Assembly (NCBI GenBank): GCA_046728135.1 | Contig: JBKPDZ010000132.1 | Location: 1-51,553 of the forward strand | DNA from: Gemmatimonadota bacterium | GTDB lineage: Bacteria > Gemmatimonadota > Gemmatimonadetes > Gemmatimonadales > GWC2-71-9 | Length of the DNA stretch: 51,553 nucleotides | Direction: 5' to 3' | Part shown: one piece after another, positions 3,108 to 40,184 of the stretch | Position numbering within the stretch: the first letter of the stretch is position 1 | How the letters are laid out: every line of letters starts with the position of its first letter | The notes under the pieces: generated by a model | Told to the model about the DNA's origin: nothing | The model's input: the letters and a program-made list of their open reading frames with translations, nothing else | Databases searched by the model: none | Program-made: the position numbers and the translations under genes

Positions 3108-4332
3108 CGAGCAGGGCGCGCACGATGCCGAGCGCGCCTTTTTCATTCTCATACCATTCCGTCGGCAGGTGCGCATCGCCCGCCCGACCACCCGCTCCCA
3201 GCGCGACCGCGGGGACGCCGAGTGCGATGGGGCAATTGGCGTCGGTGGAGGCGCATGCGAGCTGGTGCTCGTGGCCGACGGCGCGGGTCGCCGCGACGGC
3301 GGCCTGCACGAGCGGGTGGCTCCGTGGCGTCAACCCTGAGGGCCGGTCCCCCACGCGCTGAACATCCATCCCCAGGGGCGTGGTACCGGGGAGGCGGTGC
3401 CGGTTTTCTGCATCGCGCGCCTGCGCCACGGCCGCTTGCACCGCCTCGTCGATGCGCTCGAGCGCGCGCGGGTCCTCGCTGCGGAGGTCGACCTCGAACC
3501 AGGCCGTCTGCGGGATCGAGTTGAGACTGGTCCCTCCCCCCAGGCGCACCACGGCGTGCGTCGTGCGTGGCGCGTCGTGCGTGGGCATGTTCGAGATCGC
3601 TGCGACGGCACGACCTACGGCATTGGCCGGGTTCGCGACGCCGAAGGCGGCCCAGGAATGCCCACCGGGTCCCGTGTAGGTGACACGATAGCGCCGGGCG
3701 CCGAGCGCGCGGTGCACGATCCGCTCGATCCCGGCGCCGTCGAGCGCGATGAATGCATAGGGGCGAATGGCCGCGTCGTGTGATCGTTTGCGTAGGGGCG
3801 CAGCATGCTGCGCGCCTACATCGCCACTGATCAGATATCGTACCCCACGCAAGTCTCCCGACCCCTCCTCCCCGACGGTTGCGGCAAAGAGAATTGGTCG
3901 CTCAGTGTGCACGCGGGCGCGCGTGAGCGCCTCGCCAATCGACACGAGCGCGGCGAGCCCACGCGCGTTGTCCGCGATCCCAGGCCCTTCCAGGCGTGGC
4001 CCGCGCCGCGCCACCGAGACGTCCAGCTCGGGGCCAAACACGGTGTCGAGGTGAGCGGAAAGGATCACGCACGCGTCGTGTAGGGGCGCAGCATGCTGCG
4101 CCCCTACGTTGATGTACCATCCCCGCACGTTCCCCACTTCATCCACATGCACGTCCTGCAATCCGATTTCGCCCAACATTTCCGCGACGCGTGCGCCGCG
4201 TGCCGCTTCCGCGCCGGTTGGGGCGGGAATCGCCGACAACGTCGCCTGGCGGGCAAGCGTCGCCTCGTCCGAGCGCTCGATGTGCGCGCGTGCGGCGCGG
4301 ATCCGGTCGTTCGCGAGAAGCGCGGCAATCAC
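3073..4332 (-). CDS. M20/M25/M40 family metallopeptidase/hydrolase carrying in-frame repeat insertions
   Basis: SAHLDTVF, GIADNARG, VGEEGSGDLRG, GGHSW, STDAN and AHLPTEW motifs. Confidence 0.92.
   Translation of the reverse strand: MIAALLANDRIRAARAHIERSDEATLARQATLSAIPAPTGAEAARGARVAEMLGEIGLQDVHVDEVGNVRGWYINVGAQHAAPLHDACVILSAHLDTVFGPELDVSVARRGPRLEGPGIADNARGLAALVSIGEALTRARVHTERPILFAATVGEEGSGDLRGVRYLISGDVGAQHAAPLRKRSHDAAIRPYAFIALDGAGIERIVHRALGARRYRVTYTGPGGHSWAAFGVANPANAVGRAVAAISNMPTHDAPRTTHAVVRLGGGTSLNSIPQTAWFEVDLRSEDPRALERIDEAVQAAVAQARDAENRHRLPGTTPLGMDVQRVGDRPSGLTPRSHPLVQAAVAATRAVGHEHQLACASTDANCPIALGVPAVALGAGGRAGDAHLPTEWYENEKGALGIVRALLVTAAMAAARAA
3552..3586. repeat. Five degenerate tandem heptamers (consensus CGTCGTG) inside the peptidase
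   Basis: CGGCGTG CGTCGTG CGTGGCG CGTCGTG CGTGGGC, encoding PTHDAPRTTHAV on the minus strand. Confidence 0.6.
3757..3772. repeat. Degenerate half REP-like unit
   Basis: ATAGGGGCGAATGGCC resembles the GTAGGGGCG start of the neighbouring palindromes and encodes AIRPY. Confidence 0.5.
3792..3819. repeat. 28-bp GTAG REP-like palindrome, copy 1, in frame in CDS
   Basis: GTAGGGGCGCAGCATGCTGCGCGCCTAC, one mismatch from a perfect palindrome. Encodes VGAQHAAPL. Confidence 0.9.
4080..4107. repeat. 28-bp GTAG REP-like palindrome, copy 2, in frame in CDS
   Basis: GTAGGGGCGCAGCATGCTGCGCCCCTAC, a perfect palindrome. Encodes VGAQHAAPL. Confidence 0.92.
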
Positions 4333-4338
4333 GCAGGC

Positions 4339-4344
4339 AAACTA
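4339..4344 (-). promoter_or_regulatory. Putative -10 element (TAGTTT) of a leaderless peptidase transcript
   Basis: TANNNT 6 nt upstream of the GTG start, with no Shine-Dalgarno. Confidence 0.45.
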
Positions 4345-4404
4345 TGATGACATCTGGCGTGGGTGCAACTTGACCTGGCTAGGAGGGGGGGCGACACTAG
4401 ACCC

Positions 4405-5634: not shown

Positions 5635-7238
5635 GTTTCTCGGACGTCGAGAAGTCGTTCTTCGATCTCTACTGGCACATGGATCCGGTCGCGGCGACGC
5701 AGGCCGGCGTACCGGGTCACGATGATCGGTACGGTCGCTTCAGCTCGGGCGCGCTCGCTCCGCACCTCGCCGCCCTCAAATCGATCGCGTCGGCGCTCGA
5801 GGAAGTGAACGCGGCCGACCTCGAAGAGGAGATCGACCGCACGGCGCTGCTCAACGAAATCCGCGTCACGCTGCGCCGTTACGAAAAGCTCAAGCCCCAG
5901 GCCAAGAACCCCGAGTTCTGGCTCTCGCATCTCCTCGGCGGGCTGCACCACCTGCTGCTCTCGGCCGACCGTACGCCCGCAGAGAAGGCGGCGGCGGCGA
6001 TCGGACGGCTGGAAGACATTCCCGGTTTTCTGGAGGATCTGAAGACCGCCCTCGAAGAGCCGGTGCGCGTTTTCGTCGAGACGGCCATGCGCATGACCGA
6101 AGGAGGTCGCCTGCTCATCACGGAGATGGCCGCCGCGCTCTGCGCGCAGGCGCCCATGCACGCCGTCCGGCTCGGCACGGCCGCCGCGCAGGCAAGCGAT
6201 GCACTCCTCAAATTCGATGCGAATCTCGAGCGCTGGCTCGAGATGGGGACGGAGGAATTCGCCATCGGCGAGGACGCGTTCAACTTCCTGCTCCACTACC
6301 AGCACGCCCTGCGCGACACGGCGCCGGAATTGTGGCGCTACGGTCTGCGACTCAAGGAAGAAATCGAGGCGGATCTCGTCCGCATTGCCACGCGGCTCGA
6401 TGGGAAACCTTGGCCCGAGCTGGTCGACAAGCTCCGCGCCGATCATCCGGCCCCCGACGAGCTGGTGGAGGCCTACGCAAAGGAGATGGCGCGGGCACGC
6501 GACTTCGTGGCGCAGCGCAAGCTCGCGCCCATCCCGAAGGCGCCGCTCGGCGTGATTCCCACGCCGGCGTTCATGCGGCCGGTCATTCCGTACGCCGCCT
6601 ACGACAGCCCGGGCGCCTACAGTCGCGACCGCACCGGCTGGTTCTACGTGACGGTGCCCGATGCCCGGTTGCCCGCGGCGCAGCAGGAGCGCATTCTGCG
6701 CGATCACTGTCGCTACGAGCTCGCCGCGACCGCGCTGCACGAGGGCTACCCCGGTCACCATCTGCAGCTCGTCATCGCGAAAGAGTCATCCTCACACGTG
6801 CGGAAGAACCTCTGGACGCCGCTGACCGTCGAGGGCTGGGCGCTCTACTGCGAAGACATGATGGGGGAGGAGGGCTTCTACGCGTCCGACCAGGAGCTGT
6901 TCTTCCAGCGCGTGCATCTGCTGTGGCGCGCGATGCGCATTCTGCTCGACGTCGGCCTGCACACCCGCGGCATGACGCGCGCGCAAGCGGTCGAGCAGAT
7001 GGTGAACGAGCTGCATGTCGAGCGCGGCAATGCCGAGGCCGAGGTGCGGCGCTATTGCGCCTGGCCGGCGTATCAGCTCTGCTACGCCGTCGGGCGGCGT
7101 GAGCTGCTCCGGCTGCGGGACGATTTTCGAAATGCCAAGGGCAGCCACTTTTCGCTCCGCGCCTTCCACGACGCCGTGCTGCCGTACGGCGGACTTCCCG
7201 TCACACTGATCCGCTGGGGACTCGGCTTGGGTGAGTAA
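5631..7238 (+). CDS. DUF885 family protein
   Basis: LHEGYPGHHLQ, EGWALYCE, LDVGLH, AEVRRY and FHDAVL motifs. ATGA overlap with the upstream gene. Confidence 0.9.
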   Translation: MSFSDVEKSFFDLYWHMDPVAATQAGVPGHDDRYGRFSSGALAPHLAALKSIASALEEVNAADLEEEIDRTALLNEIRVTLRRYEKLKPQAKNPEFWLSHLLGGLHHLLLSADRTPAEKAAAAIGRLEDIPGFLEDLKTALEEPVRVFVETAMRMTEGGRLLITEMAAALCAQAPMHAVRLGTAAAQASDALLKFDANLERWLEMGTEEFAIGEDAFNFLLHYQHALRDTAPELWRYGLRLKEEIEADLVRIATRLDGKPWPELVDKLRADHPAPDELVEAYAKEMARARDFVAQRKLAPIPKAPLGVIPTPAFMRPVIPYAAYDSPGAYSRDRTGWFYVTVPDARLPAAQQERILRDHCRYELAATALHEGYPGHHLQLVIAKESSSHVRKNLWTPLTVEGWALYCEDMMGEEGFYASDQELFFQRVHLLWRAMRILLDVGLHTRGMTRAQAVEQMVNELHVERGNAEAEVRRYCAWPAYQLCYAVGRRELLRLRDDFRNAKGSHFSLRAFHDAVLPYGGLPVTLIRWGLGLGE

Positions 7239-8412
7239 TCAGCTTCCCAGGCAGGTCAAGCTGTTCGGTGCAGTCTCCCTTCTCAACGATTTCGCGAGTG
7301 AGATGGTATACCCGCTGCTGCCGGCGTTCGTCATCGGCCTGCTCGGCGGCGGGGCGGCGGCCCTGGGCGCGCTGGATGGGGCTGCGGACGCGGCGGCGGC
7401 GTTCGTCAAGCTGATCGCGGGGCGACTCGCGGACCGTCCATCGCGCCGCGGACCGCTAATCGTTGGCGGGTACTTCGTGGCCGCAGCCGTACGACCCATC
7501 ATCGCGGTCACCGCGGCGGCTTGGCAGGTCATCGCGCTGCGCGTCGTCGACCGCCTAGGGAAGGGCCTGCGGACCCCGCCGCGGGATGCGCTGATCGGGG
7601 ACGTGACACCACCACCCCTGGTGGGGCGGGCGTTCGGATTGCAGCGGGGGCTGGATCACGTCGGCGCGGTAATTGGGCCGCTGGTCGCTTGGGTGGTCTT
7701 GAGTCGCGGTAGGGACGTGCGCACTGTGATCTTGGCGAGCATTGTCCCGGGCGTCCTGGTCACACTGCTGGCGATTTGGACGGTAAGGGACGGTAAGGGA
7801 CGGTATGGGACGGTAAGGGTAAGCGAACCCGTCCAACCCTTACCGTCACTTACCGTCTCTTACCGTCCCTTACCGTCCTCCCTTATCGGCATCGCGATCT
7901 TCTATCTCCTCCGCATGCCCGAGACGCTCATGATTTTCAGGGCCCAGACCTTAGGCATCGCCGTCGCCCTCATCCCCCTCCTCTGGGCGGCGTTGCACGT
8001 CGTCCGATCCTCGACCTCGTTCCTCGGCGGCGCGCTGTCGGATCGGATCGGTCCGGCGCGGACGATGTGGATCGGCTGGCTCAGCTACGTCGTGCTGGCG
8101 GCGGGGATGTGGCTAGCGGCGAGTCCGCTCGCGGCCTGGCTGCTGTTTCTGGCCCTCGGCGTAGTCGCCGGGCTTACGGAAAGTCCGGAGCGGGCGCTTG
8201 TTTCATCGGCGACGGGGGGTCATCGCGGGAGCGGGTTTGGCGTCTACCACGCGTTGACCGGGGGGGCGGCGTTGATCGGCGGGATCGCGCTCGGGGTCAT
8301 TTTTCAGTGCGTGAGTGGGGCGACCGCATTTCTCGTAAGTGCTGTTGGCGCTTTGAGTTTAGTCATCCTCTGGCCTTTCTGGACGCGCTTGCATAGGGTT
8401 CCCCCGCCATGA
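7231..8412 (+). CDS. MFS transporter with a hairpin-repeat insertion in the central loop
   Basis: NDFASEMVYPLLP and DRLGKGLRTPPRDALI motifs, with a 12-TM-like pattern. Confidence 0.9.
   Translation: MSNQLPRQVKLFGAVSLLNDFASEMVYPLLPAFVIGLLGGGAAALGALDGAADAAAAFVKLIAGRLADRPSRRGPLIVGGYFVAAAVRPIIAVTAAAWQVIALRVVDRLGKGLRTPPRDALIGDVTPPPLVGRAFGLQRGLDHVGAVIGPLVAWVVLSRGRDVRTVILASIVPGVLVTLLAIWTVRDGKGRYGTVRVSEPVQPLPSLTVSYRPLPSSLIGIAIFYLLRMPETLMIFRAQTLGIAVALIPLLWAALHVVRSSTSFLGGALSDRIGPARTMWIGWLSYVVLAAGMWLAASPLAAWLLFLALGVVAGLTESPERALVSSATGGHRGSGFGVYHALTGGAALIGGIALGVIFQCVSGATAFLVSAVGALSLVILWPFWTRLHRVPPP
7778..7878. repeat. Inverted array of tandem decamers, (GGACGGTAAG)x4 then (CTTACCGTCC)x4, in frame
   Basis: 43-bp arms at 7778-7820 and 7836-7878 with 3 mismatches and a 15-nt loop. 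Confidence 0.93.
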
Positions 8413-10319: not shown

Positions 10320-10329
10320 CACACCGTCT

Positions 10330-13730: not shown

Positions 13731-13733
13731 TTC

Positions 13734-16706: not shown

Positions 16707-17366
16707 GTGAGTAACCCCTTACAACTCAAATACTTCGTACGTCGTCCGTCGTGCGTCGTCTTGCTCGCCGCAGTGCTGAGCTGTGGCGGCAAGAAATCCG
16801 CACACGAACCGACGCCTGCACCGACTGCGCCGTTGCCCACCGCGGGGCTCGCGGGCCAGCGCGTCGCGCTCACGCCACTTGCTCTGGTTGGTGCAGAAGA
16901 CACGCTCCATTTGGATACGCTCATCGCGGACCGGCGGACGACGCTCGATAAGTGCGACAGCATCCTTGTGACCCTGCTCGGGGCGCGGGCGCCTGAGGTC
17001 ACGTGGGTAGGACCGGTGGAGCTGCGACACATCGCGCGGCGCGCACCCGGCATTGCGGCCGATCCCGACCAGATGGGGACGCCGTTCCTGCGTGCGGCCA
17101 ACGTTGTCGTCGTGCCCGATCCGTTGCGATATCAATTGCGCACGCTGATGGGGCTGGTGGGTGGCCGGTATGTCCTCGTTCCTGCCGGCCTCGTTTTCCG
17201 GCGTCCCACCGACGGATCCACCGGTGCGACCGCGGAGCTCTCGGTCGTCATGATCGACTCGCGGATCGGGAGGGTCGGGTGGCGCACGATCGCCCGCGGT
17301 GAGGGCGCGGATGCCTGGACGGCGCTGACGCGGGCGGTGAAGAGCCTCACGCCGGGCCTGCCGTGA
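16707..17366 (+). CDS. Hypothetical lipoprotein
   Basis: GTG at 16707, 7 nt after TAAATT. Hydrophobic stretch followed by lipobox VLSC. Confidence 0.7.
   Translation: MSNPLQLKYFVRRPSCVVLLAAVLSCGGKKSAHEPTPAPTAPLPTAGLAGQRVALTPLALVGAEDTLHLDTLIADRRTTLDKCDSILVTLLGARAPEVTWVGPVELRHIARRAPGIAADPDQMGTPFLRAANVVVVPDPLRYQLRTLMGLVGGRYVLVPAGLVFRRPTDGSTGATAELSVVMIDSRIGRVGWRTIARGEGADAWTALTRAVKSLTPGLP
16733..16760. repeat. Four tandem heptamers (CGTCGTN) in the lipoprotein signal peptide
   Basis: CTTCGTA CGTCGTC CGTCGTG CGTCGTC. Confidence 0.65.
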
Positions 17367-18385: not shown

Positions 18386-18650
18386 GCATCCGTGCGCGAA
18401 ATGCGGCACGGATACGCCGGGCATCGCCATCGGGGGCCTGTGCCCGAGCTGCACGCGGCTGCTCGAGCGGCGGGCGAGCAAAATCGCCCGGCTGGCGGCC
18501 ATCGGCACGACCGTGCCGTTGGCGGTGTATGTGGCCCTGTCACTGCCCGTGGAGCGGACCGCGCGGCTGGTGGGCGCGGCGAGTGTGCTCCTGTGGTACG
18601 TGTTGACGTTTCTCATAGCAAAACGCGTAACACTGGAGTGGATAAAATGA
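18333..18650 (+). CDS. Small zinc-ribbon protein with two TM helices. Start uncertain, overlaps the 3' end of the IDH gene
   Basis: CAKC...CPSC followed by two hydrophobic helices. Fills the gap between IDH and DUF4139, and its stop overlaps the next ATG. Confidence 0.65.
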   Translation: MLLRPSSPAPWLSGLGPKHPCAKCGTDTPGIAIGGLCPSCTRLLERRASKIARLAAIGTTVPLAVYVALSLPVERTARLVGAASVLLWYVLTFLIAKRVTLEWIK

Positions 18651-20044
18651 CAATGTCGAATGTCCACTGTTCAATGTCCAAGTGGTGCGCATTGGTGGCT
18701 GCGCTCCTCACGCTTCCCGTCGCCGCTCCCGGACAGACATCGCTTTCCATCTATCGAGACGGCCGAGTCGTGGTGCGGCGCGCGCTCCCGCAGGCGCTGC
18801 AGCAGGGCCGAAACAATCTCACTTTGAAGCTGGAGGGCCTCGATCCCGCCACGCTCTTCTCGCCCGACACAGCGGTCTCTGTCCTTTCCGCAACCGTGCG
18901 CCCTGCCAGCACGGGTGAGGACGCGCTTCGCCGGGCAGTCGGGCAAACGCTCTCGTTCGTGCGCGCCAAGGGCGACACGGTGCGCGCGACCGTGCTGAGC
19001 GTGAACCCTCCCCAGTACCGCCTGCCTGACGGCCGGCTCCTGCTCGAGTCCCCCGGTGAGCCCCTCTTTCCGTCCGAGCTCGTGCGCGTCGGCGAAGAGG
19101 CGAGCGTGGTCCTGGAGGCCACCCGTGGGCGGCCGCGGACGGAGCTCGCATATGTTGCAGAGGGAGCGACGTGGCGCGCGACCTACCAGGTCTTGCTGGG
19201 GCAAGACCGCGCCGCCGTGGCGGGCGTCGCCACGGTGACGTCGCAAGTCCAGGTCGACAGCGCCGAGGTGCAGGTCGTAGCTGGGGCAATCCGGGCGGCG
19301 CGTATCCGCGCCGAGAGGGGCCAGTTTGCCATGCCCGCCGCACAGGCGATGGTCCGGGCGGCGGCCGAGGAGCCTCAAGAAGAGGCGGTCGGGGAGGCGC
19401 ATGTGTACACGCTGCCCGGCCGCTTGACCCTGGAGCGCGGCGTGCCGGTCGCCACGGCACTCTTCCCGCGCACCCCAACGACGTTCACGCGTGAGTTTAT
19501 CGCGCGCGGCGCGTTTCCCTTGCAAGGGTTCTACGGGCCCGGTCCCACCGGGCCGACCACCGTGGCGGTCCAGGTGTGGTACACGCTGAAGCGGCCAGCC
19601 CGATCGCCCTTTGGTGACCGGCCACTGCCTGGCGGTGACGTGCAGGTCTACGAGCGAGACTCGACCGGCCACCCCCAGCTTCTGGGCGAGACGACGATCG
19701 ATCACACGCCGGCCGGCGCCGACGTGCGGCTCTATACGGGCGACGCGTTCGACGTGACGAGCGAGTGGTTGCAGACCGACTGGCGGACCGAACCGCTGCA
19801 GCGTCAGCCCATCTCGGGAGCCGTCGGTCCCCAAAAGATTACTGCGTCGTATCGGGTCACGGTCCGCAACGCGAAGAGCGATGCCGTGAGCGTGGACGTG
19901 ATCGAGCGCCATCAGGGGGAGTGGAAGGTGACCGAGAGCAGCATGCCGTCGGAACGCCTCTCAGCTGGCGAAGTGCGCTTTCGGGTTCCCGTCCCCGCCG
20001 GCGGGAGTGTACAGCTGACCTACACGATCGAAGCGAAGTCATGA
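18647..20044 (+). CDS. DUF4139/DUF4140-like secreted protein
   Basis: Signal peptide, then SLSIY, LAYVAEGATWRATY, PLPGGDVQVY, IDHTP and YRVTVRNAK. Confidence 0.8.
   Translation: MTMSNVHCSMSKWCALVAALLTLPVAAPGQTSLSIYRDGRVVVRRALPQALQQGRNNLTLKLEGLDPATLFSPDTAVSVLSATVRPASTGEDALRRAVGQTLSFVRAKGDTVRATVLSVNPPQYRLPDGRLLLESPGEPLFPSELVRVGEEASVVLEATRGRPRTELAYVAEGATWRATYQVLLGQDRAAVAGVATVTSQVQVDSAEVQVVAGAIRAARIRAERGQFAMPAAQAMVRAAAEEPQEEAVGEAHVYTLPGRLTLERGVPVATALFPRTPTTFTREFIARGAFPLQGFYGPGPTGPTTVAVQVWYTLKRPARSPFGDRPLPGGDVQVYERDSTGHPQLLGETTIDHTPAGADVRLYTGDAFDVTSEWLQTDWRTEPLQRQPISGAVGPQKITASYRVTVRNAKSDAVSVDVIERHQGEWKVTESSMPSERLSAGEVRFRVPVPAGGSVQLTYTIEAKS
18651..18678. repeat. Four tandem heptamers (CAATGTC) at the start of the DUF4139 signal peptide
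   Basis: CAATGTC GAATGTC CACTGTT CAATGTC, encoding MSNVHCSMS. Confidence 0.65.
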
Positions 20045-27318: not shown

Positions 27319-27320
27319 CG

Positions 27321-28124: not shown

Positions 28125-28127
28125 GCG

Positions 28128-28949: not shown

Positions 28950-29053
28950 AGGGCGAAAACAATAGGGAACGCGTATGTCGCCACAATCAGTCCTGGGAGG
29001 GAATTCTCGGCGCAGCGACCTAGACCTGAGGGACTAGTCCTTCGGATGGAACC

Positions 29054-32261: not shown

Positions 32262-33484
32262 CAGTAGGCGGGCTCCGCGACATGCCGCGGATCGTCGAGG
32301 ATCAGCGCCTGAAGCTCGGTTCCCACGGGCACCGTGGGCATCTCGGCCGGGACGATTAGCAGGGCGTTCGCGTGCGCCATGCTGGTGAGAATGCCAGACC
32401 CCTGCGGGCCTGTCAAACGCGCCGCTCCTTCCTCTACTATAGCGCGCAGGAAGTGTCGCAGTCTTGGACCGAGCGTGATGGGTTCACGCGTGGTGACCGG
32501 CACCGTTCTGCGAAAGGGCAGGGCATGCCCCTGCAGGCGACGGATGACGGGCCGCACGAAGAGCTCGAAGGTCACCATCGTGCTGACGGGATTGCCGGGC
32601 AGTCCGATCCAGGGAATGCCGTTCAGCAGCCCGAATCCCACCGGCGCGCCGGGCCGCATCGCGATCCGCCAGAGCTTCAGCTCCCCGCCCGATTCCTGCA
32701 GCACGTCGCGGACGAGATCGTGCTCGCCGACGCTGACGCCGGCGGTGGTCACGAGCAAATCGGCGTTCGCCGCGCCGCGCAGGTGCTCGCGCAGGCTCTC
32801 TCGTGTGTCGCGCGCCACGCCGAGGTTGACCGGCGCGGCCGAAGAACGGCGAATGAGGGCATCGAGCGTGTAGGAGTTGGAGGTGGCGATCTTTTTGCCG
32901 GCGAGAATCTCATCTCGCCGGTCCAGGTCGACGATCTCGTCACCCGATCCCATGAACGCCACCCGCGGCATGCGGTGCACGAGCGGCCGGTCGTGCGCGA
33001 TCGAGGCGAGCACGCCGAGCTGTGCCGGGCCGAGCGCCGTGCCCGCGGTGAGAACGACGGCGTCTTTGCGAATGTCCTCGCCGCGTCGCCGGATGTTTTT
33101 CTTCGCGTCGCGCGGATTGTTGATCCTCACGGTTCCGTTGGTCGACTGCTCGGTATCTTCTTGGCGGATCACCGTGTCGGCGCCCTGGGGCAGCGGCGCG
33201 CCCGTGAAGATCCGGACTGCCTGGGCCGGGCCGATGGACTTGCTGGGAAACTGGCCGGCCGGCACGGTCTCGATGACGGCGAGCTCCGTTGCACCGCTCT
33301 CGCGCACGTCTTGGCTCCGCACGGCGTATCCGTCCATCGCCGAGTTGTCCCACGGCGGCAGGTCGATCGGACTGACGACATCCTCCGCGAGCACGAGGTC
33401 CAGCGCCTCGCGCAACGGCCGGCGCTCGGCGGGAAGCGGGCGGACATGGCTGATGATGATTCGCGCGGCCTCGGCGGGAGTCAT
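32261..33484 (-). CDS. moeA: Molybdopterin molybdotransferase
   Basis: NSAMDGYA, IFTGAPLP, GSGDE, GVSVGEHD and LPGNPVS motifs. Start MTPAEA at 33484. Confidence 0.96.
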   Translation of the reverse strand: MTPAEAARIIISHVRPLPAERRPLREALDLVLAEDVVSPIDLPPWDNSAMDGYAVRSQDVRESGATELAVIETVPAGQFPSKSIGPAQAVRIFTGAPLPQGADTVIRQEDTEQSTNGTVRINNPRDAKKNIRRRGEDIRKDAVVLTAGTALGPAQLGVLASIAHDRPLVHRMPRVAFMGSGDEIVDLDRRDEILAGKKIATSNSYTLDALIRRSSAAPVNLGVARDTRESLREHLRGAANADLLVTTAGVSVGEHDLVRDVLQESGGELKLWRIAMRPGAPVGFGLLNGIPWIGLPGNPVSTMVTFELFVRPVIRRLQGHALPFRRTVPVTTREPITLGPRLRHFLRAIVEEGAARLTGPQGSGILTSMAHANALLIVPAEMPTVPVGTELQALILDDPRHVAEPAY

Positions 33485-33999
33485 GGCGGTAGAATCTTGG
33501 CTTGGTCCCAGGCGAGATTCGCGATGGTGACCAGCCACGACGTGTCGCTGAAGCGAAACACGGGGAAAGGTGCCCGCAGCGTGGGGTCGTCGGTCACGAT
33601 CGCGATCCAGTCGGCGGGATCATGCACAGCGGCATCGAACACCGGCTTGGGACCGGCCACTTTGCGATACACTTCGATCTTTGGCAGGGGCGCGCGTTTG
33701 AATCCTTCGACCAGCACAATGTCGGCGTCGCTCAGGTAGCGGCGCGCGAGCGTGATGGGATCGGCTTCGTGCTCCGTGCGTTCGAACAGCACGCGTTGTC
33801 CGGGCGCTTCCATCACCACACGCTCCGCCTTTCCCTCGTGCCAATGGCGCCAGGTGTCCTTGCCCTTTTGATCCATGTCGGCGGGATGCGAGCCGTGCTT
33901 GATCGTCATCACGCGCAGCTTGCGGCGCACCAGCTCGGCCGCGAGCGCGACGAGAAAAGACGTCTTGCCCGCATCCTTGAGCCCGATGATCGAGATCAT
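33481..33999 (-). CDS. mobB: Molybdopterin-guanine dinucleotide biosynthesis protein B
   Basis: GLKDAGKT P-loop, IKH, GKDT and LVEGFK motifs. Confidence 0.92.
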   Translation of the reverse strand: MISIIGLKDAGKTSFLVALAAELVRRKLRVMTIKHGSHPADMDQKGKDTWRHWHEGKAERVVMEAPGQRVLFERTEHEADPITLARRYLSDADIVLVEGFKRAPLPKIEVYRKVAGPKPVFDAAVHDPADWIAIVTDDPTLRAPFPVFRFSDTSWLVTIANLAWDQAKILPP

Positions 34000-34601
34000 C
34001 CGTGTCGCCGGGATAGCGCCTCCGCGCGCGCGAGGTCCGCCGGCGTGTTCACGTTGAAGAACAGCTCGTCGGGATCGCCAAACGCCTGGACCTCCGCGAG
34101 GGGGAGGATACCGACCCGTACGTCGGCGTGGAAGGAGATCGCCTGCAGGTCGCCATGGTCCAGTCGCCGCAAGATCGCGGGGGCGCATGCCGGCCCGTAG
34201 ACCGCACACAGCGGCTCCAGGCCGCGCCGGCCCGAGCTCTCAGGAAGAAAAGCGTCGTAGCCGCCGCCGGCGGCGCCGGCGACCAGCGCGCTGAGCAGCG
34301 CCTCCGGCACGAACGGCATATCCCAGGCGACACAGAGCACGGGCTCGGGACCGGCGCCCACCGCCGTGTAGATCCCGCCGAGACTGCCGCAGCCCGGCCG
34401 GCTGTCGGGAATCGTCCGCAAGTCCGGGCGCCACGAGGCGGCGTCGGGTGCGTTGGCGATCACCAGTGGCGGTGCGGCCGTCGCCGCCTGCACTGCACCA
34501 ACGACATGATCGAGAATGCGGCGAGCGCCGACCGTCAGCAAACCCTTGGGCAATCCACCGTAGCGGCGAGCGCCGCCTCCGGCCAGGACCGCGCCTCGCA
34601 T
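33996..34601 (-). CDS. mobA: Molybdenum cofactor guanylyltransferase
   Basis: LAGGGARRYG, AWDMPF, EPLCAVY and FNVNTP motifs. Confidence 0.93.
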   Translation of the reverse strand: MRGAVLAGGGARRYGGLPKGLLTVGARRILDHVVGAVQAATAAPPLVIANAPDAASWRPDLRTIPDSRPGCGSLGGIYTAVGAGPEPVLCVAWDMPFVPEALLSALVAGAAGGGYDAFLPESSGRRGLEPLCAVYGPACAPAILRRLDHGDLQAISFHADVRVGILPLAEVQAFGDPDELFFNVNTPADLARAEALSRRHG

Positions 34602-34602
34602 G

Positions 34603-35025
34603 CTAGACCTTGAGGTGATCGTGTTCGATGGCGAGGCAGTGATCCATGACGAACGCGATCCCGGCCGCCTCGGCACGCTGGCCGGCGCCTGCATCCACGA
34701 CGCCGAGCTGCAGCCAGATTACCTTGGGCGCCGGCCGCAGCGCGATGGCTTCATCGACGATCGCTCCCACATGCTCGCTGCGCCGAAATACGTTCACCAC
34801 GTCAATCGGATGCTCGCGCGCGGCATCGGCGAGCGTCCGGTAGCTCTTCTCGTGGAGGATTTCGCCGTGACCCGGATTCACCGGCACGATCTTGTAGCCG
34901 GATCGCTGCAAATAGCGGGCGACGGAATTGCTGGGTCGCATCGGGTTGGGCGAGAGTCCCACGACCGCGATGGTGCGGGCGCCCCGGAGCAGGGCGCGGA
35001 GGGTCTCCTCTTCAGACGGCGTCAT
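34603..35025 (-). CDS. CoA-binding protein (YccU-like)
   Basis: IAVVGLS, PVNP, VNVFRR, WLQLG and MDHC motifs. Confidence 0.92.
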   Translation of the reverse strand: MTPSEEETLRALLRGARTIAVVGLSPNPMRPSNSVARYLQRSGYKIVPVNPGHGEILHEKSYRTLADAAREHPIDVVNVFRRSEHVGAIVDEAIALRPAPKVIWLQLGVVDAGAGQRAEAAGIAFVMDHCLAIEHDHLKV

Positions 35026-35744
35026 ACCTCGCGTCTGTGCACGTGCGGTGTCCCACTGACGGCCCGGCCGACGAGCACCATCCCGGAGCGCTCGGCGATG
35101 GTCACCGCGAGTGTGGACGGCACGCTGGGCGTCGCCACCCAGGCGAGTCCCGCGCGCGCCGCCTTGAACGCCAGCTCGGCCGAAATGCGGCCCGTGACGA
35201 GGAGACCGCGGCCCACGATGGGTGTCCGCGCGAGCACCGCTGCACCGATGACCTTGTCTACCGCGTTGTGCCGGCCGATGTCTTCGGCGTGAAACAGCAG
35301 CGTCGTGCTGTCGGTCAATGCGGCGGCATGAATACCGCCCGTTTCGTTGTAACGAGCGCCCGAAGCGAACAACTGCTTGAATAGCTCGCGTAACGTTTCC
35401 GGCGCGGGCGGCTCACCGCGCAGCGGTGCCTTCCGGCTCATGGCTTCCGGGTCCGCGAGCATCGTCGCGACCGCGCCGCACCCTGATGCGAGCACGCGTT
35501 TGCGATTCTCGCCTTTCACCTGGGCGAGTCGCTCGGGTTTGACATCGGCCCAGAAGCCGAGATCGGGAGCGCAGGGACGCAGCTGAACCAGATCGTCGAG
35601 CGACGCGATGTAGCCCTCGCCGTGCAGCCAGCCGACCGCGAGCTCCTCGAGCTGGTCGGGTGTGCACATCCACGTGACTGCGGGCTCGCCGTTCACTCCC
35701 AGCCACACGGGCCACTCCTCGACCACGGCCGAGTCGGCGCGCAT
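35022..35744 (-). CDS. fdhD: Formate dehydrogenase accessory sulfurtransferase
   Basis: MCTP, TGGIHAA, EDIGRHNAVDK and TGRISAE motifs. Single-Cys SGCG loop. Confidence 0.92.
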   Translation of the reverse strand: MRADSAVVEEWPVWLGVNGEPAVTWMCTPDQLEELAVGWLHGEGYIASLDDLVQLRPCAPDLGFWADVKPERLAQVKGENRKRVLASGCGAVATMLADPEAMSRKAPLRGEPPAPETLRELFKQLFASGARYNETGGIHAAALTDSTTLLFHAEDIGRHNAVDKVIGAAVLARTPIVGRGLLVTGRISAELAFKAARAGLAWVATPSVPSTLAVTIAERSGMVLVGRAVSGTPHVHRREV

Positions 35745-35766
35745 GCGGCCGGAGCGATCGCCCGGC

Positions 35767-36168
35767 TTACGATTCGCCGCGGTATTCGGAATAGAGATGG
35801 GGACTCTCCTGGATACGCACACAGTACAGGGTTACGCCCTTTGGCAACGCGCCGGCGAGACGCTCCCAGACATGGACCGCCAGCGCCTCCCCGGTCGCGA
35901 TCCAGCTGCCGCCGGCGAACGGGCTGATATCGTTGTTGATGTGTCGCCCGTCGAACCGCGCCACGACTTCGCGCTGCAGCAACGCCTTGAGTGCCAGCAG
36001 GCTCATGACGCCCCCCCCGCCGCGCGCCGGATCGAACACGCCCTTGACCGTCACGGCGCACTTGTACTGATGACTGTGATCGTCCGTCGCGCCCGAGAAC
36101 TCGGGTGTATTGGGGAAACGATGCGTGGCGGTGAACTCCACGACCCGCGTCAGATACGCTGTCGGCAT
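35767..36168 (-). CDS. 6-pyruvoyl/6-carboxy-tetrahydropterin synthase family (QueD/PTPS-like), divergent
   Basis: FTATH, HSHQY, FDGRHIN, TGEALA and VRIQES pattern. Confidence 0.8.
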   Translation of the reverse strand: MPTAYLTRVVEFTATHRFPNTPEFSGATDDHSHQYKCAVTVKGVFDPARGGGGVMSLLALKALLQREVVARFDGRHINNDISPFAGGSWIATGEALAVHVWERLAGALPKGVTLYCVRIQESPHLYSEYRGES

Positions 36169-36171
36169 TCC

Positions 36172-37179
36172 TTAGAATACCCGGACTGCGGTGGCCTTGA
36201 AAGAGAAGACGACGCTCCCGCCTGGCGCGAGCGCCAGATCGCGCGCGGCTTCCGCCGTCACGGCGGCCACGAGCTCGACCTCGCCCATATCTGCCCGGAC
36301 GTGCACGCCCGCGCCGCGCCGCTCGATTGCCATACCGACCACTCGCCCCTTGAACACGTTGCGGGCGGACGAGGCGAGCGGCTCCCGACTCACAAGGATT
36401 TCTGTCGGCGGGACCGCCAGCACCGCCGGACCCGTACGCTCGGTCATCAGCGCGATTTCGATACCGCCGACGCGGACGCGCTTCACGCCGTCTCCCGGCG
36501 GCAGGTCGACGCGAAACAGATTCTCCGGCGTCACGGGGGAGAAGCGGCCGTCGGCGAGCGCACGGATGTCGTCGGCCCAGCGATACGCATCTTCGAGTTG
36601 ATGCGAGGCAACGCACACCGCAAAGGGGCGGGCGGCGCGCTCGGCTGCGAGCGCGCGGTAGAGCGCGCCCGCGGCCGCGGTGTCGGCTGAGCTCGCAGGC
36701 TCATCGAGCAGCAGCACGTCCGTTCGCAAGGCGAGCGCGCGTGCGACGGCAACCCGCTGGACCTCACCTTCGGACAGCTCGTGGCGCCGGCGACCGAGCA
36801 AAGGCGCGAGGCCCAGTTTGTCCACGACATCCCCGATGATCCCGTTCACCGCTGTGCGTCCAAAACCTCTTACCTCGAGACCATAGACCAGATTGTCCCG
36901 CACCGTCCCGCGAAGCAGCACCGGTCGCTGCTCGACGAGCGTCACGCGACGACGGAGGGCCGGTGCCGGACGCCGCGGCACGACCGTGCCATTCCAGAGT
37001 ACGGATCCTTCCGTCGGACGTTCGAGGAGCGCCAACAGCCGGAGCAGCGTGCTCTTTCCAGAGCCGTTGTGGCCGACCACTGCCACGATCGCGGTAGGCG
37101 GCAGCGCGAAGTGCTCGAAATCGAGCACCACGCGTCCCGCGTAGCGGTGCCGCACCGAGCGCAGTTCAACCACTGCCAC
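36172..37179 (-). CDS. ABC transporter ATPase with TOBE domain (TupC/ModC-like)
   Basis: GHNGSGKS, LSEGE, LLLDEP and a C-terminal SSARN...FKATAV TOBE domain. Confidence 0.88.
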   Translation of the reverse strand: MAVVELRSVRHRYAGRVVLDFEHFALPPTAIVAVVGHNGSGKSTLLRLLALLERPTEGSVLWNGTVVPRRPAPALRRRVTLVEQRPVLLRGTVRDNLVYGLEVRGFGRTAVNGIIGDVVDKLGLAPLLGRRRHELSEGEVQRVAVARALALRTDVLLLDEPASSADTAAAGALYRALAAERAARPFAVCVASHQLEDAYRWADDIRALADGRFSPVTPENLFRVDLPPGDGVKRVRVGGIEIALMTERTGPAVLAVPPTEILVSREPLASSARNVFKGRVVGMAIERRGAGVHVRADMGEVELVAAVTAEAARDLALAPGGSVVFSFKATAVRVF

Positions 37180-37861
37180 GCCCCTGCAGGACCTGCAACG
37201 CGATGTTGATGATGAGCGCCAGCGTCACCAGCACGAGTCCCAGGGCCAGCGCCGTCCCGAAGTCACCCTGGGAAGTGTAGAGCGCGACCGCGGTGGTCAG
37301 CGTGCGGGTGGAGCCGCGGATGTTGCCGCCGAGGATCATCGCCGCCCCGACTTCCGCGACGACTTGGCCAAACGCGGCTGTGATGACCGCGGCGAGCGCA
37401 AAGCGCGCTTCCCGCGCCACGGTCCAGGCTGCCCGCCACGGGCCGGCGCCGAGCGTTTCGGCGGTACGCCGCACGCGCGGATCGACCGCTTGCAACGCGG
37501 CGGCGGACAGGGCCGCGGCGATCGGCAAGGCGAGCAGCACATCGCCTACGACGATGGCCTGCCAGGTGTACAGCCAGCCGAGGCCTCCGAGTGGCCCGCG
37601 GCGCGACAAGAGCCCGTAGAGCAGCAAGCCGACGACGACCGTCGGGAACGCGAGGGCGGTATTGACCACGGTGAGCGCGGCACGCCGGCCCCAGAAGCGG
37701 CGCGTCGCCAGGAAGTACCCGAGCGGCAATCCGACCGTGCAGGCGACGGCGGTTGCGACGACGGCGACCTTGAGCGTGAGCAGCGCGATTCCGAAGACTT
37801 CGGAATCACCCGCGATGAGGAGCCCCCAGGCGCGCCGCACTCCCTCGGCTAGAAAGTCCAT
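37166..37861 (-). CDS. tupB: Tungstate ABC transporter permease (TupB-like)
   Basis: PTVVVGLLLYGLLSRRGPLG and EVGAAMILGGNIRGSTRTLTTA. Confidence 0.88.
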   Translation of the reverse strand: MDFLAEGVRRAWGLLIAGDSEVFGIALLTLKVAVVATAVACTVGLPLGYFLATRRFWGRRAALTVVNTALAFPTVVVGLLLYGLLSRRGPLGGLGWLYTWQAIVVGDVLLALPIAAALSAAALQAVDPRVRRTAETLGAGPWRAAWTVAREARFALAAVITAAFGQVVAEVGAAMILGGNIRGSTRTLTTAVALYTSQGDFGTALALGLVLVTLALIINIALQVLQGRGSG

Positions 37862-38604
37862 CCGAGGCCGAGGGTGACCCAGGGATGCAGCGTCCAGTCA
37901 GTGAGTTTCTCGGTCAGCGGGATCACGCGTGAGCCGTCGGGTGCGAGCGGCGCGTGAAACGACGGCGGATATTTGAGGCGCCAGAACAGCGCGCGGATAT
38001 CGGCATCGAACACCACGCGCCGTGCCGGATACCAGCGCACGCCGGAAGCTAACGCCAGCGTAAACTTCGAGCCAAACCGATAGCCGCTGTTCGTCGTGTC
38101 GCCCGGCGAATTCACGTCGAATGCCAGGCCAAGGCCGGTGCCGACGTACGGCGCGAAGCCATGCCAGGTCTTTCCACCGGTCAGCCGCAGCAGCATCCCG
38201 ATCTCTGCCTGCGCCAGATCGGACTTGACCGGGCCGGTCCGCCGCCCCACGGAATTCGAGTCGGCGTGCGGGTTGAGGATGAAGCGGTCGCCGCGCAGAT
38301 ACGCGCTCGTGAACTGGAACCACAGCGCGCGACCGGCGGGGATCTCCCAGCGCGCGCCAAACGTGAGGGCGTTGCTCGTACCGGCCTGCACGTTGCCGCG
38401 ATCCGCACCGAGGTGACCCATGAAGAACATCGGTCCGGCGTGCAGCGCGATGTCGCGATAGGGGGATGTGCCGGGGTTGTGGCCGACCTGTCCGTCTGAC
38501 CGTCGGACGGTCGGACCGATGGACAGCATGATCACTCCGGCGACCGTCCACCAAACGCGCCTCGACCGTCCAGCCGTCCGACCGTCCAACCGTCCGACAA
38601 TCAT
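37849..38604 (-). CDS. Outer-membrane beta-barrel protein with a repeat-derived signal peptide
   Basis: ATG at 38604 after GAGGGAG, overlapping the gpmI stop. Amphipathic strands, APYVGTGLG and C-terminal GWTF. Confidence 0.75.
   Translation of the reverse strand: MIVGRLDGRTAGRSRRVWWTVAGVIMLSIGPTVRRSDGQVGHNPGTSPYRDIALHAGPMFFMGHLGADRGNVQAGTSNALTFGARWEIPAGRALWFQFTSAYLRGDRFILNPHADSNSVGRRTGPVKSDLAQAEIGMLLRLTGGKTWHGFAPYVGTGLGLAFDVNSPGDTTNSGYRFGSKFTLALASGVRWYPARRVVFDADIRALFWRLKYPPSFHAPLAPDGSRVIPLTEKLTDWTLHPWVTLGLGWTF
38495..38598. repeat. Inverted arrays of tandem octamers (core GGACGGT/ACCGTCC) bracketing the signal-peptide core
   Basis: TCTGACCG TCGGACGG TCGGACCG ATGGACAG ... CGACCGTC CAGCCGTC CGACCGTC CAACCGTC CGAC. 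Confidence 0.85.
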
Positions 38605-40184
38605 GTCTCCCTCAAATCCTTTCCTGTCATTTCCCGCGGTGGCTCGATACCCATGAGCTGCAAGATCGTTGGTCCAACGTCGCGAAGCGAGCCACCGGCG
38701 CGCAACGGTTTCGCCCCGGCACCGGCGCCCACCATGACGAAGGGCACCGGATTCGTCGTGTGCGCGGTGTGCGGGCCACCCGTCGCGGGGTCGATCATCA
38801 GCTCGCAGTTGCCGTGATCCGCGGTCACCAGGACCGTCGCGTTCGCCGCTTCGGCAGTGGTCAGGACGCGCGCCAGACACTGGTCGACGGTTTCGACCGC
38901 CTTGACGGCGGCCGCCAGCACGCCGGAATGTCCGACCATATCGCCGTTCGCGTAGTTGCAGAGGATGAAGTCGTGCTGCTTGGCCGTGATCGCCTTGCAG
39001 AGCACGTCGGTGACACCCGGAGCACTCATCTCCGGCATGAGGTCATAGGTCGCGACTTTCTGCGACGGCACGAGCAGCCGCTCCTCGCCTTTGTAGGGCG
39101 GCTCGTACCCGCCATTAAAGAAGTATGTGACGTGGGCGTATTTTTCGGTCTCGGCGGTACGAAACATCGTCTTGCCGTGGTCTGCCACCACTTCCGCGAC
39201 GATGCGCGACAGCACCATCGGCTCGAAGGCGGCGGGAAAGGGCAGCGTCTCGTCGTAGCGCGTCATCGTCACGAGCCGCACCTTGGGACGGCCCTTCACG
39301 TCGAAGCCGTCGAAGTCGCGGGCGGCGAGCGCGCGCACGATCTGGCGCATGCGATCGGCTCTATAGTTGAAGCAGAAGATGCCGTCGCCCTCGTGCACGA
39401 GCGGGGCGCCGGTGATGACGCGCGGTTTGACAAACTCATCGGTCTCGCCGGCTGCGTACGCCTGCTTGATGGCAGTAATGGGATCAGGCACTTGCACGCC
39501 GATCCCTTTTACCATCGCATCGTACGCGAGCTTGGTGCGATCCCAGCGCTTGTCACGATCCATCGCGTAGTAGCGACCGATCACTGTCGAAACGACGGGA
39601 GTCAGGAGTCGGGAGTCGGGATTCAGGGGTGCCTCCCCAGTCTCCCGGCTCCTGACTCCCAGCTCCTTAAGCAGTTCCTCCATGAATGCCAGTGCAGACT
39701 GCGGCGGAGTATCCCGGCCGTCGAGCCAGGCGTGAATCGCCACCGGGACGCGGGCGCGACGGCCCAGTTCGACCGCGGCAAGGAGATGCTTGTCGAGCGC
39801 GTGTACGCCGCCGGTGCCGATCAGCCCCATCACGTGCAACGTGCCGTCGTGCCGACGTGTGTCTTCCGCCAGTTGGACGAGAGCGGGAATGCGAAAGAAC
39901 TCGCCGGACTCGATCGACTGGGAAATACGAACGATGTCCTGCGGCACGACACGACCCGCGCCGAGGTTCAGGTGGCCGACTTCGCTGTTTCCGATCTGTC
40001 CGTCGGGCAGTCCGACGGCGAGGCCTGAGGCGTCCAGCAGCGTTCGAGCGGGGCGCTGCCACAGCTTGTGCCACACCGGCGTGCTGCCGAGCTCGATCGC
40101 GTTGCCCTCGCGGCCGGGACGAAAGCCCCAGCCGTCGAGCACGATGAGGATGACCGGGGTGCGCGTGCCACGGGTCGTTGTCAT
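38601..40184 (-). CDS. gpmI: 2,3-bisphosphoglycerate-independent phosphoglycerate mutase with an in-frame hairpin insertion
   Basis: LDGWG, GNSEVGH, DGRDTPP, GRYYAMDRD, AETEKYAHVT and ADHGN motifs. Confidence 0.98.
   Translation of the reverse strand: MTTTRGTRTPVILIVLDGWGFRPGREGNAIELGSTPVWHKLWQRPARTLLDASGLAVGLPDGQIGNSEVGHLNLGAGRVVPQDIVRISQSIESGEFFRIPALVQLAEDTRRHDGTLHVMGLIGTGGVHALDKHLLAAVELGRRARVPVAIHAWLDGRDTPPQSALAFMEELLKELGVRSRETGEAPLNPDSRLLTPVVSTVIGRYYAMDRDKRWDRTKLAYDAMVKGIGVQVPDPITAIKQAYAAGETDEFVKPRVITGAPLVHEGDGIFCFNYRADRMRQIVRALAARDFDGFDVKGRPKVRLVTMTRYDETLPFPAAFEPMVLSRIVAEVVADHGKTMFRTAETEKYAHVTYFFNGGYEPPYKGEERLLVPSQKVATYDLMPEMSAPGVTDVLCKAITAKQHDFILCNYANGDMVGHSGVLAAAVKAVETVDQCLARVLTTAEAANATVLVTADHGNCELMIDPATGGPHTAHTTNPVPFVMVGAGAGAKPLRAGGSLRDVGPTILQLMGIEPPREMTGKDLRET
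39597..39660. repeat. Inverted array of tandem heptamers (GGGAGTC/GACTCCC), in frame in gpmI
   Basis: GGGAGTC AGGAGTC GGGAGTC GGGATTC ... CCAGTCTCCCGGCTCCTGACTCCC. The 24-bp arms have 3 mismatches. Confidence 0.9.

Follow-up and report, generated by a model that had tools for sequence, protein, structure and literature searches.

The window analysed here is a stretch of 51,553 nt, contig C132 (JBKPDZ010000132.1) of a Gemmatimonadota assembly (GCA_046728135.1, hereafter G000; 2.64 Mb in 162 contigs, 66% G+C, 87.6% complete), which holds eight small palindromic or tandemly repeated elements associated with protein-coding genes. Such elements fall into two classes in this genome: class 1 is a perfect 28-bp GTAG...CTAC palindrome resembling repetitive extragenic palindromic (REP) elements, and class 2 is a hairpin made of a tandem array, a spacer and an inverted tandem array. 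Both classes mostly occupy very short gaps, either at the 3' ends of genes or at stop-start junctions. Their sites act as slots, which persist among congeners and whose content turns over to another family, to the palindrome or to nothing. For the one family that was counted, the arms change in concert, within the element and genome-wide, and the spacers stay locus-specific. Tentatively, and with slightly less than an even chance of being right, we regard the eight elements as local representatives of two classes of small repeats that are non-autonomous, form hairpins and occur throughout the genome; their arms would be homogenised by template switching and gene conversion.

A strict scan of G000 for hairpins, based on pairs of arrays detected by Tandem Repeats Finder (TRF), returned 66 tandem-spacer-inverted-tandem structures vs. 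0, 0 and 0 in three control genomes simulated with a fifth-order Markov model. The palindrome, counted with up to 4 mismatches, is present in 57 copies, of which 43 are exact. Both classes are genome-wide families, as an earlier, sequence-only reading of the window had anticipated. A more sensitive pass gave 123 hairpin calls, including GC-rich false positives of period 6, which were dropped, and a working set of 90 hairpins was retained with a period of at least 7 and a good inverted alignment. Units of 7 bp make up 53 of these hairpins, those of 8, 9 and 10 bp accounting for 24, 5 and 8, respectively. More than 20 unit families are represented, the largest being AATGCGA (17 elements), GGGGGAC, GGAGCAC, GGTGTCW, GCACGTCG, GGCGGTTG, GCTATCG and GACGGTAAGG. 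Solo arrays of about four units, belonging to the same unit families, number in the hundreds, their assignment to a family at one mismatch being too lax for heptamers, since 49% of random units pass. Long poly-G/poly-C runs at contig ends (G000:C20:1-117 and C49:18-81), probably assembly-end artefacts, slightly inflate the counts of GGGGGAC-like units.

Concerning their location, assessed genome-wide with a crude open reading frame (ORF) caller (2,381 genes, 92% coding), 38 of the 90 hairpins lie at most 60 bp downstream of a gene end, 3 lie between convergent genes, 31 are within coding sequences (CDS) and 18 elsewhere. Of the 57 palindromes, 35 are intergenic, typically 4-30 bp past a stop codon and often between convergent genes, 4 straddle gene ends and 17 lie within genes. 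All of these 17 are read in the VGAQHAAPL frame; one other palindrome, located at the first codon of a crude ORF whose translation contains a stop, was not counted as coding. About a third of the elements are in coding DNA and translated in-frame, within variable loops and signal peptides. The sequence-only reading had found none of these families in intergenic DNA, which is correct for the window and does not extend to the genome, given the 35 intergenic and 4 straddling palindromes and the 38 hairpins past gene ends.

Each hairpin is built of two inverted arms of 28-40 nt, with 4 to 4.5 units of 7-10 bp, round a unique spacer. The 34 arms of the 17 AATGCGA-family elements all align to one 32-nt module of 4.5 units with sharp outer ends. 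At these 34 boundaries, inspected by eye, neither a conserved flank nor a target-site duplication was seen, and no target-site duplication was seen by eye between filled and empty hairpin sites either. Spacers range from 0 to 69 nt and are unrelated between copies of a family. Their origin as copies of other DNA was rejected: among the 33 spacers of at least 18 nt, 30 have no second match in the genome, and the matches of the other three extend over 16-18 nt only. The predicted folds are very stable, with a median energy of -48.6 kcal/mol for hairpins whose median length is 77 nt. A periodic mismatch at the variable position of the unit occurs in some hairpins (e.g. C101:6944) and is not general.

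The arms are arranged with a marked polarity, the G-rich arm coming first in 82 hairpins and the C-rich arm in 8. Because a G-first arrangement reads alike on both strands, this is a real handedness. Among inverted pairs of arrays of the same family, the G-first to C-first ratio is 50:4 at less than 150 bp and 9:0 at 150-500 bp; beyond 500 bp, polarity is mixed and direct pairs are equally common. Solo arrays show a weak orientation, with 26 G vs. 14 C past gene ends and 76 vs. 70 in CDS. Inverted arrays of the same family, always G-first, bracket 200-480 bp at C115:615-1114, C113:16229-16717, C59:5909-6433 and six other places, two of these pairs enclosing a whole convergent intergenic region.

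Turnover was followed in relatives that are metagenome-assembled genomes (MAGs) of varying completeness, three of them (G009, G017 and G092) unpublished. The sister of G000 is G013 (support 0.90 in a three-protein tree, the backbone of which is weak), and syntenic DNA of the two is 80-84% identical. Their comparison covers 12 hairpin and 6 palindrome sites of G000, a non-random set from retrievable contigs. At the 12 hairpin sites, G013 has a repeat at 10, with an unchanged family at a single one (C69:15317). ATTGCGG replaces AATGCGR at two sites (C69:11435 and C113:17833), and another family or a short array is found at six: the loop of a major facilitator superfamily (MFS) transporter, the loop of the cofactor-independent phosphoglycerate mutase (iPGM), a signal peptide, C69:7114, C36:20872 and C113:11532, the last with AATGCGA in G000 vs. 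GGTGTCW in G013. At C69:8795, the GTAG palindrome stands instead of the hairpin in G013, and also in G010 and G136. The sites C155:5056 and C36:21484 are empty in G013. Three of the six G000 palindrome sites resolved in G013 are shared.

The stop-start junction C155:5056 could be resolved in 20 other genomes and is empty in 14 of them, 13 having 2-12 bp and G010 a doubtful 0-bp call. G139 carries an AATGCGR hairpin with a spacer resembling that of G000, and the other units at this junction are GTGYGGC (G011 and G018), GCGGAAC (G015) and ATTGCGG (G017); read in phase, all end in GCGG and vary in their first three bases. At C69:15317, GGTGTCW is shared by G000 and five others, GCTATCS is found in G008 and G018, GGTCATC in G001 and GGGGCCT in G017, and 13 further genomes have only 0-20 bp. 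The G018 copy at this junction (contig C15, L287) has its C-rich arm first (GCTATCC x3 ... GGATAGC x3), a rare exception to the G-first order. Ortholog alignment yielded the empty or differently filled sites for which the sequence-only reading had suggested looking, in congeners and in outgroup families.

Concerted change is seen at C69:11435. To the eye, G000, G010 and G013 have homologous-looking spacers there (about two thirds identical), and the arms consist of AATGCGA in G000 and G010 and of ATTGCGG in G013. Genome-wide counts of two successive units, with up to 1 mismatch and on both strands, were, for ATTGCGG and AATGCGR respectively, 1 and 84 in G000, 4 and 51 in G010, 15 and 8 in G136, 39 and 16 (1 exact) in G013, and 268 and 34 in G017. 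Together with C69:11435, these counts indicate that the AATGCGR/ATTGCGG family has a species-specific variant and that spacers evolve as ordinary DNA. Mixed arrays, in which ATTGCGG adjoins AATGCGG, are present in G013 and G136. A mixture of another kind was seen at G000:C4:15930-15991, where GATAGCC units enclose three central GGGAGCC units, as if one family had been partly converted by another or a nested event had involved the two.

Some arrays appear without any change in length. In the 3-hydroxyacyl-CoA dehydrogenase gene (HADH, contig C65), no indel was found at either arm across the order, two congeners having an unrelated 3-residue insert between the arms. Where outgroups read KKGALTAEQRDAAL, the genus has heptamers, GGAGCCR or GGAGCAG, which form a graded series of constant length, from partly periodic in G012 and G011 to fully periodic in G018. 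Another stretch, about 100 bp downstream, differs by species: its heptamers are of the complementary C-type in G000, G013 and G005, five species have 10-mers and one has 9-mers, and the rest have a native-like sequence. A loop of the alanyl-tRNA synthetase (AlaRS), aligned in 15 genomes of the genus, has a near-constant length and a species-dependent array: four GGAGCAC units in 7 of the 15, GGGGGAM in G013, GCGGGAW in four species and none in three. Three genomes of family f3 have 8-mer or 9-mer arrays in the same loop. What looks like the right arm of a "hairpin" in the AlaRS gene of G000 we take to be the native LPxPSVD motif of the enzyme, as in Escherichia coli. The unit GGAGCAS is common to AlaRS, HADH, the M20 peptidase and seven hairpin loci, four of which are intergenic.

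Within the window, the eight elements exist where the sequence-only reading had placed them (Table 1), the AATGTCN run being weak and unreported by TRF; the core GGACGGT, common to the 8-mer and 10-mer units, is likewise visible in the sequence. The position in-frame in a loop or signal peptide that had been claimed for every element is borne out by ortholog alignments for iPGM, the MFS transporter, both M20 sites and the signal peptide of the gene following iPGM. Searched at gathering thresholds, Rfam gave no match in the window.

Table 1. Repeated elements of the window and the genes that carry them (positions within the 51,553 nt)
Feature	Position	Strand	Description
M20/M28-family peptidase gene	3073..4332	-	Pfam Peptidase_M20 2.8e-17, M20_dimer 5.7e-10
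Solo heptamer array, CGTGCGT on + / ACGCACG on coding strand	3555..3584	-	TRF 4.0 copies (3555-3582)
GTAG palindrome, M20 site 2	3792..3819		1 mismatch; in-frame VGAQHAAPL
GTAG palindrome, M20 site 1	4080..4107		Exact; in-frame VGAQHAAPL
MFS transporter gene	7231..8412	+	Pfam MFS_1 1.3e-30; 20 orthologs aligned
Decamer hairpin, GGACGGTAAG x4 - spacer - CTTACCGTCC x4	7778..7878		MFS central loop; read through as WTVRDGKGRYGTVRVSEPVQPLPSLTVSYRPLPSS; TRF arms 7778-7819 (4.2 copies, 93% matches) and 7837-7878 (4.2 copies, 90% matches)
Short solo heptamer array CGTCGTS	16735..16760	+	TRF 3.7 copies, score 38; weak
Weak heptamer run AATGTCN, about 4 imperfect units	18651..18680	+	By eye; not reported by TRF at score 30
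Unnamed gene downstream of iPGM	ORF 37849-38880	-	Likely ATG ~38597
Octamer hairpin, GGACGGTY units on - strand	38492..38602		Occupies the space from the iPGM stop to where the conserved mature portion of the following protein is encoded; TRF arms 38492-38518 and 38565-38595
iPGM gene	38601..40184	-	Pfam Metalloenzyme 9.4e-76, iPGM_N 1.9e-67
Heptamer hairpin, GGAGTCR units, in iPGM	39598..39669		Read through as GVRSRETGEAPLNPDSRLLTP; TRF array 39598-39627, 4.3 copies, inverted arm read separately

The M20 peptidase, with orthologs in 25 of 31 relatives, hosts two palindromes and one heptamer array. The latter encodes THDAPRTTH, prolongs conserved PRTT codons and, in protein and DNA alignments of orthologs, is of native length, with no indel vs. 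outgroup families; its unit recurs elsewhere in G000 in at least eight other solo arrays and one hairpin. At site 1, the palindrome is common to G009, G013, G016, G006 and G010 (degenerate in the last), G001 and G002 have a GGGAGCA heptamer array, and the remaining relatives a short unrelated sequence. At site 2, among 19 relatives with sequence there, only G009 shares the palindrome, as a degenerate copy; others have a short sequence (G013, G010 and G006) or octamer arrays (G016, G004, G011, G001, G002 and G008).

In 10 of 12 complete congener sequences, the central loop of the MFS transporter has a different 10-mer unit, arranged as a hairpin or at least as arms that can be recognised; the sequences of G015 and G012 are degenerate. 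The 10-mer units seen are GGACGGTAAG, GGGCGGTAGG, GGGCGGCGAG, GGTTGGTGGA and GGGCGGTCGA. In family f3, a heptamer hairpin (GGGGYTA) occupies the loop in three of five genomes aligned.

In iPGM, the hairpin stands between two conserved blocks and amounts to +51 nt relative to the shortest congener, G012. A related hairpin is found in G018 (+63 nt) and a different one in G017 (+45 nt), while recognisable octamer arrays of 24-27 nt fill the slot in eight other congeners and a degenerate stretch in G009. The octamer hairpin that follows is coding only as the N-terminal signal peptide of the next protein (MIVGRLDGRTAGRSRR...). In outgroups G022 and G024, the two that could be resolved, it is an ordinary signal peptide that precedes the conserved AQVGH. 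Within the genus, the whole signal peptide of this gene is encoded by an octamer hairpin, with a unit that varies by species (GGACGGTC, GGAAGGTT, ATGGAATG, ACGGTACG or GGCGGTTN); G016 has a different repeat. As for the two short runs, CGTCGTS sits within a signal peptide, that of a protein predicted to be a lipoprotein from an LSCG lipobox read by eye, and AATGTCN covers the first codons of a secreted-looking protein (ATG at 18648).

The palindrome was found in 11 of 121 genomes sampled from the order. It is present in all 8 sampled genomes of the genus, including G000 (3-56 matches per strand), and in three other genera of the same family (4-6 copies), vs. 0 of 74 sampled genomes of the two other families of the order. 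Among the contigs listed by a wider search, the exact 28-mer occurs in ones labelled Chloroflexota, Cyanobacteria, Acidobacteriota, Binatia, Myxococcota, Planctomycetota, Bacteroidota and others. Among the matches so listed, 31 copies lie in a long VGAQHAAPL frame, 12 in the other open frame and 79 in neither, the criterion for an open frame being a rough one. The identity of a 28-mer with such a patchy distribution suggests horizontal movement or a shared factor that recognises it. Hairpins of the same build were seen at 8 places in 836 kb of public palindrome-bearing contigs, including one in an Anaerolineales MAG and two in a deltaproteobacterial MAG. Since tandem arrays are also found in palindrome-free f3 genomes, palindromes and hairpins are separate systems.

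The sequence-only reading had proposed that genes for a REP-associated tyrosine transposase (RAYT), a reverse transcriptase or a primase-polymerase would track the repeats. Profile searches of G000, a genome 87.6% complete, gave neither Y1_Tnp (PF01797) nor RVT_1, primase-polymerases not being searched for, and this part of the proposal is not supported. Y1_Tnp is present in 31 of 41 genomes of the genus and 42 of 121 of the order. In family f1 without G000, it was found in 8 of 10 palindrome-bearing vs. 22 of 36 palindrome-free genomes, so that no specific link between Y1_Tnp and the palindrome emerges. Three genomes, G000, G012 and G127, have palindromes (56, 3 and 20 per strand, with up to 1 mismatch) and no Y1_Tnp match, and the 1.5-kb flanks of four congener Y1 loci contain no GTAG palindrome. 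The link to RAYT was accordingly rejected, as G000, the genus, the order and the four Y1 loci show no association with the palindrome beyond shared phylogeny; a reverse transcriptase was rejected for want of RVT_1 in G000. A common neighbour gene was rejected as well: when ORFs of at least 110 aa were compared at 116 palindrome loci from many phyla, the largest cluster covered 11 of the 116. With regard to a repair defect, MutS_V, the large subunit of exonuclease VII (ExoVII) and Ku are present in G000, hence no obvious missing function among those checked (MutL, RecJ, SbcB and SbcCD were not). The match to the ExoVII large subunit, at G000:C134:8140-8874, falls into two pieces, which cover profile positions 1-173 and 227-313 and overlap in their DNA coordinates; this may reflect an insertion or a divergent middle part.

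At the RNA level, the sense fold is the more stable one in 22 of 38 hairpins at 3' ends (p 0.17) and in 10 of 31 hairpins in CDS (p 0.07). Selection on the RNA was rejected, sense and antisense fold energies showing no significant difference. A consensus scan of positions 30000-45000 of the window for terminators made of a hairpin and a T-run found 7 vs. 7.1 expected. The repeat hairpins possess stems, and their inspected flanks have no regular T-run.

In the explanation that we tentatively prefer, the homogenising force would be template switching together with gene conversion, acting on the repeated arms alone, and no dedicated enzyme would be needed. Slipped or fold-back misalignment would act within an element and ectopic conversion between dispersed copies. 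The elements would be tolerated or kept as 3' stem-loops in the termination or protection of mRNA ends, a function argued only from their position and from the lack of an excess of canonical terminators, and the coding copies would be spill-over that proteins tolerate in loops. Conversion is favoured because it explains, with ordinary enzymes, the unique yet orthologous spacers, the mixed arrays, the graded series and the periodisation without indels. Several points weigh against it. The G-first polarity is predicted neither by gene conversion nor by hairpin function alone, and the exact 4.5-unit arms look like copies of a defined module and not like slippage. Switches between unrelated units at one slot (e.g. 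C113:11532) are impossible by homology-driven conversion and need a fresh insertion or another process. With 32 nt, the arms come close to the shortest length commonly given for RecA-dependent exchange. The fold energies give no RNA-level signature, the difference between sense and antisense not being significant, and public runs hold at best 0.05-0.06 of the sampled words (soil metagenomes). Polarity, exact arms and switches between unrelated units keep both a templated writer and classical transposition alive. The fast turnover and the species-specific variants fit some process that rewrites arrays, and a dedicated repeat-writing enzyme may exist. The genome-wide process that the sequence-only reading had imagined as writing short inverted arrays into DNA is in agreement with the genome-wide families, the new peptides, the fast turnover and the species variants; what has to be abandoned is that it is specific to coding DNA and that it always inserts.

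A dedicated trans-acting writer, which we consider unlikely, would extend two converging 3' ends, at a break or a pair of nicks, by a G-rich module of fixed size (about 30 nt), from an RNA or DNA template and by a telomerase-like, target-primed, HUH or other activity. End joining would then leave head-to-head arrays round a junction or a native spacer, and a change of template would rewrite a family genome-wide. The head-to-head polarity, as in fused telomeres (82:8 overall, 50:4 and 9:0 by spacing), is what such a writer would produce, and so are the fixed 32-nt arms with sharp ends (34 of 34 in the AATGCGA family), the locus-unique spacers, the pairs flanking up to about 500 bp, the species-wide switch from AATGCGR to ATTGCGG, found also at an orthologous locus where the spacers are homologous, and the overwritten patches of native length in HADH and M20. 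The same four-unit convergent build is moreover reported, in the available part of the source, for one Xanthomonas family (PMC4692102). However, neither RVT_1 nor Y1_Tnp was detected in the incomplete G000 genome, more than 20 unit families per genome would demand many templates, mixed arrays and graded series look gradual, the 116 palindrome loci have no conserved neighbour gene, and solo arrays follow no strong orientation rule (26 G vs. 14 C past gene ends). A shade less probable still is the broader proposition that a templated writer exists here, and possibly in Xanthomonas, Chloroflexota and others, overwriting short patches and so rewriting junctions, loops and signal peptides, with genome-wide unit switches upon a change of template. 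Transposition in the manner of MITEs (miniature inverted-repeat transposable elements) or of REP doublets forming hairpins (REPINs) is also improbable in our estimation, to the degree given for the writer itself. The elements would be foldback-like miniatures with sub-repeated terminal inverted repeats, moved in trans, for instance by a Y1/IS200-like enzyme, and species variants would be recent bursts. Clean empty sites (14 of 20 genomes at C155:5056; 13 genomes with 0-20 bp at C69:15317), sharp boundaries, dispersed families common to the genus and the presence of Y1_Tnp in 31 of 41 genomes of the genus agree with this, and in-frame gene fusion is known for MITEs, REPs and Rickettsia palindromic elements (RPEs), as far as the consulted part of the source goes (Delihas 2011, PMC3184786). 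It leaves unexplained the G-first polarity across more than 20 families, and it has against it the want of any target-site duplication or conserved flank by eye, spacers unrelated within a family, unlike the conserved core of a MITE, the retention of the spacer under changing arms at C69:11435, the arrays without length change in HADH and M20, the palindromes of G000, G012 and G127 without Y1_Tnp and the four Y1 loci without a flanking palindrome. A purely local origin, finally, seems very unlikely to us. Slippage and quasi-repeat or quasi-palindrome correction would start from chance periodicity, under selection for hairpins or linkers and with no transfer between loci. The graded HADH series at constant length, the prolonged PRTT codons of M20 and the tendency of a locus to retain its period across the genus (10-mers for the MFS loop, octamers for the signal peptide except in G016) are in its favour, but the same units recur at many unrelated loci in many species (GGAGCAS), 17 AATGCGA elements have an identical arm length, and variant frequencies are species-specific genome-wide.

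Among known systems, the closest are the heptamer repeats GGGAATC of Xanthomonas and GGGGAYT of Nostoc (Rehm et al. 2015, PLoS One, PMC4692102). According to the accessible part of that paper, Xanthomonas genomes each have 70-75 cases of two arrays convergent on opposite strands; the repeats are dispersed, mostly intergenic and at most 50 bp from stop codons, 7-11% overlap ORFs, and there is no association with insertion sequences. Each genome has one G-tract family, interpreted there as forming G-quadruplexes. On this partial view, tandem heptamers in about four units and convergent inverted pairs near gene ends are common to those repeats and the ones met here, whereas more than 20 families of 7-10-mers, about a third of them in CDS, distinguish the present case. 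GGGGGAC-like families have G-tracts; AATGCGA (17 elements), GCTATCG and GCACGTCG do not, and, given AATGCGA and GCTATCG, the G-quadruplex is no principle that could unite the families. The part of PMC4692102 consulted describes neither the turnover of slots nor a switch of variants across a species nor overwriting without indels. In the literature that our search turned up, supplements being outside it, nothing was found on slot conservation with content turnover, a species-wide switch of arms or overwriting at native length, nor on the peptide GAQHAAPL, the 22-nt core of the palindrome or such repeats in Gemmatimonadota.

A GTAG at the 5' end is the hallmark of REP elements, such as the SMAG elements of Stenotrophomonas. 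Like them, the 28-bp element of G000 is a GC-rich palindrome starting with GTAG, present in tens of copies and mostly extragenic after stop codons. Unlike them, its palindrome is perfect, bounded by GTAG/CTAC on each side and equal to its own reverse complement; an identical 28-mer is found in MAGs labelled as belonging to many phyla, and 17 of 17 CDS copies are in one frame. REP and REPIN elements are mobilised by RAYT, in the part of the source available (Bertels and Rainey 2011, PMC3116915), whereas no RAYT was found in G000 or G127 and none was seen flanked by the palindrome. The tandem hairpins of G000 carry no GTAG. With MITEs they share terminal inverted repeats (arms of 28-40 nt) but have no conserved core between them. 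RPEs and other small repeats are fused in-frame to genes (Delihas 2011, PMC3184786, in the part consulted). Compared by description and on that partial basis, RPEs resemble the elements of G000 as small palindromic repeats read through inside genes and adding peptide segments; they differ in being 105-146 bp long and conserved in sequence, vs. tandem 7-10-mers of many families with unique spacers, some of which replace sequence instead of adding it. Eukaryotic foldback transposons have inverted termini with sub-repeats, and telomeres can fuse head-to-head. The likeness to both is one of form only (sub-repeated inverted arms, a variable centre and a G-rich strand running 5' to 3' towards the centre), since the present elements are bacterial, measure 50-150 bp and come with no identified transposase or telomerase-like gene.

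If the pattern holds, the "G-quadruplex" pairs of Xanthomonas would be one case of a wider architecture independent of G-tracts, and what makes and keeps convergent heptamer pairs would become a question again. Arms of 30 nt changing in step round fixed spacers would offer a compact and countable instance of concerted evolution, in which conversion and a writer can be tested against each other. New peptide segments would have arisen in iPGM, AlaRS, HADH, the M20 peptidase and a transporter loop, and as a whole signal peptide, giving a concrete route from the dynamics of non-coding repeats to protein remodelling. On the practical side, gene calling, the clustering of proteins and the assembly of MAGs will be misled by these repeats in Gemmatimonadota.

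Two minor observations concern neighbouring systems. On the 2.9-kb contig G013:C54 (L188), the ORF of an IS200-like Y1 transposase (160 aa) lies between two larger IS-like ORFs and is unrelated to the repeats. G000 also possesses a minor family of 25-bp palindromes, CCCCCTCTCCC-GAA/AAC-GGGAGAGGGGG, with 4 + 2 copies.

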